64,000 nucleotides of DNA from positions 35,914-99,913 of the forward strand of contig DASZZM010000026.1 in the NCBI GenBank assembly GCA_035544895.1. Reading direction: 5' to 3'. Below, one piece after another: positions 5,832 through 7,073 of this stretch; positions within the stretch are counted from its first letter, which is position 1; each line of letters opens with the position of its first letter. The notes under the pieces are model-generated. The model was given only the letters and a program-made list of their open reading frames with translations, searched no databases and was not told where the DNA came from. The translations under genes were made by a program, and so were the position numbers. Origin of the DNA: Thermoanaerobaculia bacterium (GTDB lineage Bacteria; Acidobacteriota; Thermoanaerobaculia; Multivoradales; UBA5704).

Positions 5832-7073
5832 GTGGCCTACGGTCTGCAAGACTTCGTCGAAGTCTTCCCGTTCACCCGCCAGCCGGAGGGCGATGAGGTG
5901 GTCATCGGGCGGCCCGAAACCGGTGTGTTCCTGGCGCTACCGGCAGAGGCAGTCGAGATCCTCGACGACCTGGCTGCCGGCCGATCGGTCGGGGCGGCGC
6001 AGGCGGACTACGAACGTGCCCATCACGAGACTCCGGACGTGCCGGACCTTCTCGGCTTCTTGGAGAGCAAGGGCTTTGTCCGCAAGCGAGACGGCGAGCC
6101 TTCTCCGGACCGCGGCCGCCCGGCCTCGGCGCCAAGGCCTGCGCCGGCGAGCGTGCGCTACCACTTCGCCAACATCCCGGAGGCTGCTGCCCGGCGCGTC
6201 TTCGGCCCCTTTTCGACGCTCTTCTATCTGCTCATCATCGCAGCCGCCGTCGGGCTAGCGATCCAAGATCGCTCGCTCATTCCGGACGGCCGCAGCCTCT
6301 ACTTCACGGCGCACCGGACGGCGAAGATGGTGGGCGTATTTCTATTCTCGCTGCTATCCCTGTTCATTCACGAGTTCTGCCATCTCCTTGCGGCCCGTGC
6401 CGTCGGTGTCAAGTCGCGGCTCGGGATCGGCAACCGGCTCTGGGTCCTGGTGGCCGAGACCGACCTGACCGGCCTATGGGCCGTGCCGCGCAAGCAGCGC
6501 TATCTGCCCATGCTCGCGGGACCGATCTCGGACGGGGTGAGTGGCGCGCTGATCGTCTTTGCGCTCTGTGCCCAATCGCACCGGCTTCTCCACCTTTCCG
6601 CCGGCATGGTGGAGCTCTTGCGGGCCAGCCTCCTGCTGTTCCTTGCCCGCCTGCTGTGGCAGTGCTTCTTCTTCCTGCGAACGGATTTCTATTACGTGAT
6701 CGCGTTGTTCTTCGGCTGCAAGAACCTGATGAAAGATACGCAGAGATTCGTCACGGGCTGGTTGTCGTACTTCTTCCGCGGTCGCCCCAGGGATGACCAG
6801 AAGCGGATTCCCCCGCGGGAGATGCGGGTCATCAAGGTCTATTCGATTCTCTGGTTGCTGGGGCGAGGGCTGGCGTTCGTCTCGCTGTTCCTGTTTGCCG
6901 TTCCGGCTCTCACCCGCTACCTCCGGGACCTGTTCGGCGCGTTGTCGCGCGGCATCGGACCGGATGCATACGGTTTTGTCGACACCGTGGTGGTGAACCT
7001 GCTCAACCTGCTGCCCTTGGTCCTCGGCCTGAGCCTCTGGCTCGCGAGCCTCTTGAACAGGAGTCGGACATGA
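5832..7073 (+). CDS. Fusion protein: N-terminal PqqD-like RiPP recognition element fused to a membrane site-2-protease-like (M50 family) zinc metalloprotease.
   Basis: The N-terminal ~90 aa (EVVIGRPETGVFLALPAEAVEILDDLAAGRSVGAAQADYE...DLLGFLESKGFV) fit the PqqD/RRE pattern. The C-terminal ~300 aa are polytopic, with HEFCH (HExxH) inside a TM segment. A later TM segment carries MLAGPISDG, which I read as the S2P NxxPxxxLDG-type motif. Start is GTG 5832, with GAGGAG 9 nt upstream. Confidence 0.7.
   Translation: MAYGLQDFVEVFPFTRQPEGDEVVIGRPETGVFLALPAEAVEILDDLAAGRSVGAAQADYERAHHETPDVPDLLGFLESKGFVRKRDGEPSPDRGRPASAPRPAPASVRYHFANIPEAAARRVFGPFSTLFYLLIIAAAVGLAIQDRSLIPDGRSLYFTAHRTAKMVGVFLFSLLSLFIHEFCHLLAARAVGVKSRLGIGNRLWVLVAETDLTGLWAVPRKQRYLPMLAGPISDGVSGALIVFALCAQSHRLLHLSAGMVELLRASLLLFLARLLWQCFFFLRTDFYYVIALFFGCKNLMKDTQRFVTGWLSYFFRGRPRDDQKRIPPREMRVIKVYSILWLLGRGLAFVSLFLFAVPALTRYLRDLFGALSRGIGPDAYGFVDTVVVNLLNLLPLVLGLSLWLASLLNRSRT

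Follow-up and report, generated by a model that had tools for sequence, protein, structure and literature searches.

A predicted RiPP recognition element fused to a site-2-type intramembrane protease domain and encoded beside a conserved leader peptide

Results

The stretch of DNA analysed here (the window) comprises 64,000 nucleotides of a Thermoanaerobaculia bacterium (assembly GCA_035544895.1, contig DASZZM010000026.1, positions 35,914 to 99,913 of the forward strand). Its subject is a gene on the plus strand (5832–7073) for a 413-residue protein in which a predicted recognition element of the kind used by ribosomally synthesised and post-translationally modified peptides (RiPP recognition element, RRE) is joined to a membrane domain of the M50, or site-2 protease (S2P), type. 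A gene for a 35-residue peptide lies directly upstream, a gene for a tetratricopeptide repeat (TPR) protein follows, and a permease gene precedes the whole. An earlier reading made from the letters of the DNA (the sequence-only reading) had proposed such a fusion, with leader recognition coupled to intramembrane proteolysis. The fusion itself held, while catalysis is something that we infer.

The gene and its family

The open reading frame (ORF) starts with GTG and has a ribosome-binding site, GAGGAG, 7 nt ahead. An identical protein, annotated as hypothetical, is found in a Thermoanaerobaculia (Acidobacteriota) metagenome-assembled genome (MAG), and there are hundreds of homologues over the full length, with identities between 76% and about 37%. 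An exhaustive profile search gave 2,338 clusters of relatives (at 50% identity) with a cutoff of E≤1e-3, of which 638 also pass E≤1e-30; in nearly every one the match takes in the N-terminal and the C-terminal half. When one genome was scanned for each species, 192 relatives came up. Their hosts are Acidobacteriota, Cyanobacteria (Nostoc, Tolypothrix, Calothrix), Myxococcota, Chloroflexota, Actinomycetota, Bacillota and one Lysobacteraceae genome. A chance ORF is excluded and, since full-length homologues exist and most clusters cover both halves, the gene and its two-domain architecture are real and under selection. Many homologues are named ‘putative peptide zinc metalloprotease protein’ in IMG, a YydH-type label; ‘hypothetical protein’, ‘zinc metalloprotease’ and ‘Peptidase M50’ are used in other databases.

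The AlphaFold2 model of the full-length protein has a mean predicted local distance difference test (pLDDT) value of 81.9 and a predicted template modelling score of 0.72. The two domains are separated by a flexible linker rich in Pro, Ala and Ser (residues ~89–112; 6096–6167, plus strand). Its residues 90–109 fall below a pLDDT of 50, its length varies among homologues and the family alignment is rich in insertions and deletions at columns 101–145.

The N-terminal domain

Residues 1–88 (5832–6095, plus strand) make up the PqqD-like domain, which is predicted to be cytoplasmic. Modelled alone, the domain of about 90 residues reaches a pLDDT of 93, with strands at 8–11, 15–19, 22–27 and 32–37, helices at 38–48, 53–64 and 70–80, and a short strand at 83–85; the succession of β-strands and then three α-helices is that of the RRE winged-helix fold. 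When the isolated domain was compared with known structures using Foldseek, RRE-containing RiPP proteins took the top 14 places and most of the top 20. The best matches in the PDB were TbiB1, TfuB1, McbB, TigE, MibB, PqqD, PbtF, TglI, CteB and SuiB, with probabilities of up to 1.0.

Sequence methods speak more faintly. The Pfam PqqD model (PF05402) finds nothing in the window protein at E≤1, and its gathering score is not reached. Weak sub-threshold matches occur in 12 of 19 homologous N-terminal domains (best E 1.2e-3), and two distant members score 17–21 bits against a gathering value of 23.4. A family profile searched against PDB sequences has the lasso peptide RRE TbiB1 as its top match, at an E-value of 0.2. 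These searches are weak alone; the predicted structure is clear, and on that model the domain is an RRE, as had been proposed for the first 90 residues.

The membrane domain

Residues ~113–413 (6168–7070, plus strand) form a domain with six transmembrane (TM) segments that resembles the M50/S2P proteases. Hydropathy places the segments at residues 126–145, 164–188, 227–247, 257–279, 336–360 and 385–407. Counts of Lys plus Arg are 14, 7, 12 and 2 on one face and 2, 1 and 3 on the other, which predicts that both termini lie inside and hence that the RRE is cytoplasmic. The sequence HEFCH (residues 180–184; 6369–6383, plus strand) sits near the cytoplasmic end of the second segment, and in S2Ps of established structure, MjS2P and RseP, the active site opens toward the cytoplasm. 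HEFCH, with H180, E181 and H184, is the predicted zinc-binding and catalytic motif; it aligns with HEFGH of RseP, and the three residues, together with G230 and D285, show no variation across 247 family sequences.

The Pfam Peptidase_M50 model (PF02163) matches residues 174–273 with E 1.9e-4, over model positions 7–106. A homologue, P0266, passes this model at 29.5 bits and many others carry precomputed PF02163 matches. The family hidden Markov model (HMM) pairs VHElaHLlaAraVGV..lGisnrlW with VHEFGHFWVARRCGV..IGFGKALW of Escherichia coli RseP and, more weakly, AGPllD with AGPVAN of the same protein. Fold comparison of the predicted model recovered the S2P core and links the domain to clan-MM S2Ps rather than to another protease clan; within the PDB it is the only comparison that makes the link. 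The polytopic M50/S2P-type domain and the location of HEFCH inside a TM segment, both anticipated by the sequence-only reading, are thus borne out.

The same reading had taken GPISDG (residues 230–235, with G230 and D234; 6519–6536, plus strand) for the LDG motif of S2Ps, lying in a later TM segment. Its location stands, at the start of the third segment, but the assignment does not. Scanning fragments of RseP against Pfam, we found that residues 11–121, which hold HExxH and AGPVAN, fall on PF02163 positions 2–103, and that residues 326–438, with LDG at 401, fall on positions 112–221. As the match of the window protein spans positions 7–106, GPISD(G) occupies the place of AGPxxN and not that of LDG. 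In agreement, G235 is variable (L, A, V or G), and position 234, which is Asp instead of the canonical Asn in 245 of the 247 members, is Asn in P0266; these observations and the PF02163 position rule out the LDG assignment. A229-G230-P231-x-x-D234 has the AGPxxN pattern, otherwise GxxxN, of the middle core helix of M50 proteases, even though P231 is conserved at only 58%. An hhalign comparison with E. coli RseP lacking its PDZ region was informative only near HExxH; it paired PISDG with PVLDG at 0.4% probability and was not used.

We propose instead that the equivalent of LDG is Q277-x5-R283-T284-D285-x-Y287 (6660–6692, plus strand), a stretch picked out by its conservation (D285 in 247, T284 and Y287 each in 246, and Q277 in 244 of 247 sequences). 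It lies just past the cytoplasmic end of the fourth TM segment, two helices after HExxH, where the topology of an S2P core would put the motif. D285 (nt 6684–6686) is most likely the third zinc ligand, judged by its spacing, topology and invariance; the spacing was compared with that of eight from Asn to Asp in SpoIVFB.

The upstream peptide

The gene at 5653–5760 (plus strand) has a GGAGG ribosome-binding site, is called as a gene and encodes the 35-residue candidate precursor MKRFYAREVETLKTTAAFYGCDPTNCCNYQCCTDG, with a leader of residues ~1–17 and a Cys-rich core. Its leader matches, with E 3.8e-14, an HMM that we built from the first peptides found and applied to 85 loci. A small ORF with this leader lies on the same strand directly upstream of the protease gene in 83 of these loci, from at least seven bacterial lineages; the other two lack it because their contigs end at that point.

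Among 80 unique peptides the consensus leader KKFxIREVETLKTTAA is strongly conserved; R6, E9, T10 and T14 never vary, and 65 of the peptides have Tyr next, at position 18. Conservation ends at about this position, where entropy jumps, and the tail extends 6–35 residues past the conserved KTT. The hypervariable part of the tail is 22% Cys, with much Gly, Pro, Trp and Ile, and at least one Cys is found in 79 of the 80 peptides. Five Nostoc loci (L040, L042, L043, L051 and L052) carry three to five tandem, near-identical precursor genes ending in AAAAYVCWICSSCW, spaced by about 235 bp, at ~5.5–6.7 kb in the locus. No Pfam or NCBIfam model matches the precursor peptides, which databases call ‘hypothetical protein’, and our literature search found no report of the KKFxIREVETLKTTAA motif. 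At one locus (L011, 6773–6906) the precursor gene seems frameshifted, with MKRFAVREWRR in one frame and GVETLKTTAAFYDCGC... in another, which is either a MAG sequencing error or a pseudogene.

Between the precursor stop and the protease start lies a 17-bp GC-rich hairpin (5775–5813, plus strand; minimum free energy −50.5 kcal/mol, z −5.0), which has no U-tract. Of 79 loci, 60 have an unusually structured spacer (z<−2) at the equivalent place, which suggests attenuation or stabilisation of the transcript in favour of the precursor. A similar arrangement is familiar from RiPP operons, in which the precursor transcript exceeds those of the enzymes.

Covariation between leader and RRE

Residue 7 of the leader is acidic in most loci and Lys in 11 non-redundant loci from four phyla. 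Its charge is tracked by position 80 of the RRE (K80 in the window protein), which is at the C-terminal end of helix α3 and adjoins the invariant G81. An acidic leader residue 7 is accompanied by Lys or Arg at position 80 in 48 of 59 cases. Of the 11 cases with Lys at leader residue 7, none has either residue at position 80 and 5 have Glu. Fisher's test gives p=3.3e-7, which overstates the case because the sequences are not independent, and the real control is the specificity for one column, as the next-best of the 412 protein columns gives 4.8e-4. Shared ancestry would touch many columns; a single outlier in α3, the helix that lines one side of the leader groove in solved RRE complexes (TbiB1 and the NisB type), therefore speaks for a direct salt bridge.

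A general mutual-information analysis of leader and RRE yielded a diffuse signal in which phylogeny dominated, and at leader positions 11, 15 and 18 the charge-class test lacked column specificity. Taken with the adjacency of the peptide gene, the covariation of leader residue 7 and K80 argues that the RRE would bind the co-encoded leader directly. The leader recognition envisaged by the sequence-only reading thereby gains independent support, from the peptide in 83 of 85 loci and from a charge swap limited to K80.

Neighbouring genes

Context was counted by clustering the ORFs of 81 loci. Besides the peptide, the sole near-universal partner is a TPR protein of about 660 residues, found in 72 of them; public databases annotate it as ‘hypothetical’ or ‘tetratricopeptide repeat protein’. 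In the window it has 664 residues (7070–9064, plus strand; identified by TPR matches and locus clustering), its start overlaps the protease stop codon, and it is translationally coupled to the protease. The TPR array covers residues ~230–650. The first ~200 residues have a weak likeness to AAA_16/ORC-CDC6-type NTPases in 4 of 11 members, with a degenerate Walker A (GxxR) and a Walker-B-like WVIACDxFD. No effector or catalytic domain was recognised in the partner, and we rejected an enzymatic assignment of its N-terminal domain, for which there was only the weak AAA_16/ORC-like similarity and no recognisable catalytic family. Scaffold, gate, core-binding chaperone and receptor are all candidates for its role.

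The gene at 3155–5599 (plus strand) encodes an 814-residue duplicated FtsX/MacB permease. It scores 618.0 bits against TIGR03434 (cutoff 622.3) over residues 9–813 and, on this profile match, is of the ADOP type in all but the formal threshold. No ATPase partner is encoded nearby. ADOP permeases occur in 22 of the 81 loci, mostly in Acidobacteriota; the coupling of proteolysis to export through the adjacent FtsX permease, which the sequence-only reading had considered, is thus a lineage-specific association and fails as a general feature.

A protein of about 300 residues with a signal-peptide-like N-terminus (9080–10003, plus strand) follows the cassette in 10 of 81 loci and has no Pfam match. 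The SPTS of the window protein is replaced by CPLC in its homologue at locus L039 (10052–11158), a hint that the former has lost a redox motif. We considered this secreted neighbour as a thioredoxin and dropped the idea, neither the window protein nor the L039 homologue having a Pfam match. Upstream of the cassette lies an AraC-family regulator gene (2537–3046, plus strand), as also in a related Acidobacteriota locus that has no permease (L002, 6994–7443). G+C is 0.72–0.77 over some 30 kb of the window (24001–54000), compared with 0.63–0.71 in the first 24 kb, where the cassette lies; AT skew is strongly negative across 24001–54000.

A distant relative, P0223, has a ThiF domain fused ahead of the RRE-S2P unit (L087 1–11609; ENA ERZ27257065, contig k141_753429). 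Its cluster encodes 39-residue peptides ending in Cys, a second ThiF protein, Yip1, a Rce1-like protease, a membrane-fusion protein, two FtsX/MacB permeases and two B12-radical SAM enzymes. This composition indicates that the RRE-S2P module is reused in clearly RiPP-like clusters. The recurrence of MacB/FtsX-type export here lends limited support to the idea of export, though not as a general feature.

Discussion

We consider it probable, from the sequences and the predicted structures, that the 413-residue protein is an RRE-guided intramembrane leader peptidase. The cytoplasmic N-terminal RRE would bind the KKFxIREVETLKTTAA leader of the peptide encoded just upstream, and the flexible linker of ~25 residues would give the bound peptide access to the active site, which opens to the cytoplasm from the six-TM S2P core and would consist of H180, E181 and H184 in the second TM segment and most likely D285 after the fourth. 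Cleavage near the boundary of leader and core (TTAA-x-Y) would free a core that is small, hydrophobic and rich in Cys, at the membrane or into it. The AAA_16-like/TPR protein may serve as an obligate accessory, as scaffold, gate or core-binding chaperone, and export may be provided by whatever each lineage supplies, which in the window could be the ADOP permease.

Several observations weigh against this proposal. The precursor has no TM segment, unlike the substrates of classical S2Ps, and no tailoring enzyme is conserved in the cassette among the clustered ORFs of the 81 loci. The PF02163 match of the window protein scores 21.3 bits, under the gathering threshold of 27.2, and the full-length family profile finds no match among PDB sequences. 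The canonical NxxPxxxLDG is absent, and the C-terminal half bears no similarity to the LDG half of PF02163 (positions 112–221). The ligand role of D285 draws on spacing, topology and invariance, and D234 is almost invariant too. Finally, the putative substrate-binding hairpin (residues 197–211) is modelled at low confidence.

Other explanations can be built on some of these points. Were the upstream peptide a ligand and not a substrate, binding of its leader to the RRE could turn the S2P core on or off with respect to another protein, in the membrane or a partner, in a signalling pathway of regulated intramembrane proteolysis with the STAND-like TPR protein as output or sensor. The obligate partner does resemble signal-transduction AAA_16/TPR proteins and has no catalytic signature, the lack of a conserved tailoring enzyme is in keeping with such a role, and, according to a title in the reference list of PMC12710340, a leader-bound RRE activates the lasso leader peptidase. 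However, a conserved leader followed by a hypervariable Cys-rich tail, in up to five tandem copies in Nostoc, is the signature of a processed precursor, and no second candidate substrate is conserved in the 81 loci; we therefore regard a purely regulatory peptide as unlikely. It seems to us improbable, too, that the membrane domain is an inactive protease retained as an anchor, translocation or immunity device, with HExxH kept only for binding metal or peptide. The missing NxxPxxxLDG and the sub-threshold Pfam score would suit such a device, and EpeP is thought to aid export besides cleavage (PMC10885120). Yet both His residues, the Glu and D285 never change among 247 diverse sequences, and the IGxGxxLW and AGPxx motifs resemble those of RseP, as is the rule where an active site has been conserved; the S2P core fold was recovered as well.

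The faint sequence similarity of the N-terminal domain to known RREs might raise the thought of a generic winged-helix domain that binds DNA or protein, in a membrane-tethered regulator unrelated to the peptide. We give this very little credence. The top structural matches are overwhelmingly RiPP RREs solved with bound leaders, weak Pfam PqqD matches are seen in 12 of 19 homologous N-terminal domains, 83 of 85 loci have the peptide alongside, and K80 alone shows the charge covariation.

The architecture is a fresh combination of known kinds, and the cassette is a candidate for an uncharacterised peptide-maturation or signalling system in several phyla. It is conceivable, and we put it forward tentatively, that the three-part cassette represents an unrecognised class of ribosomal peptide products or signals across phyla. 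The RRE-S2P protein would be the sole dedicated enzyme, selecting a soluble cytoplasmic peptide through its leader and cutting it inside the membrane, and the hydrophobic, thiol-rich core would be released into or across the bilayer with gating by the STAND-like partner. S2Ps are known for cutting membrane-spanning regulators, and how they select substrates is a central question for the family. A cytoplasmic RRE tethered to the S2P core would be a different route to such selection, its defined peptide partner being encoded alongside in practically all genomes, and the cassette would offer a simple and genetically compact system in which to study delivery of a substrate to an intramembrane protease. 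The KKFxIREVETLKTTAA leader, the RRE-S2P fusion and the TPR protein together form a signature that can be mined. It occurs in uncultured Acidobacteriota and also in Nostoc, Tolypothrix, Corallococcus and Myxococcus, which can be grown in culture, and the predicted small Cys/Trp-rich products, such as YVCWICSSCW, are open to a search by mass spectrometry.

Comparison with known systems

Our literature search found nothing joining M50 with an RRE, and the RRE-Finder supplements that we examined hold no PF02163 entry. According to the RRE-Finder update, RREs occur in fusion with many Pfam domains, and RRE-M50 fusions may sit unremarked in its data set.

The lasso leader peptidase B has the same logic as the window protein, with an RRE (B1) fused to or paired with a leader peptidase (B2), and the lasso B1 proteins TbiB1 and TfuB1 are the closest structural matches of the N-terminal domain. 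The proteases differ: B2 is a soluble cysteine protease of the transglutaminase type, whereas that of the window is a polytopic zinc S2P core. The window protein shares with RseP and SpoIVFB (MEROPS family M50) the core fold of three TM segments, the placing of HExxH within a TM helix, a motif of the IGxGxxLW type after it and AGPxx in the next helix. Classical S2Ps carry NxxPxxxLDG and recruit membrane-spanning substrates, as a rule already cut at site 1, by way of PDZ or CBS domains; the window protein has a cytoplasmic RRE, a likely soluble peptide substrate and QxxxxxRTDxY. A further parallel is the processing of pheromones by Eep/RseP-type enzymes in Firmicutes, where an S2P frees short hydrophobic signalling peptides that are sensed by TPR receptors. 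That protease lacks an RRE and acts on SHP precursors or the signal peptides of lipoproteins, and a DNA-binding domain is part of the receptors.

M50 proteases that mature RiPPs are already known, namely EpeP/YydH for epipeptides and TglG/TmoG for pearlins (PMC10885120). EpeP/YydH of Bacillus subtilis, which belongs to a ribosomal-peptide cluster, is an M50 metalloprotease of the intramembrane kind that we propose for the window protein; its substrate is a small non-membrane precursor, in whose release or export it may also help (PMC10885120). The model for YydH/LiaK (NF058609) has 246 positions and, unlike the window protein, no RRE. Against it the window protein scores 14.2 bits (E 0.026), far from the equivalog cutoff of 225, and the epipeptide pathway includes a radical SAM epimerase where the RRE-S2P cassette has no conserved tailoring enzyme. 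TglG/TmoG resemble the window protein in being membrane-bound M50 proteases and act on RiPP scaffold peptides (PMC10885120). They differ from the role proposed here in that they are carboxypeptidases releasing a modified C-terminal residue, and the RRE of the pearlin pathway resides in a separate protein, TglI, which is itself among the structural matches of the N-terminal domain.

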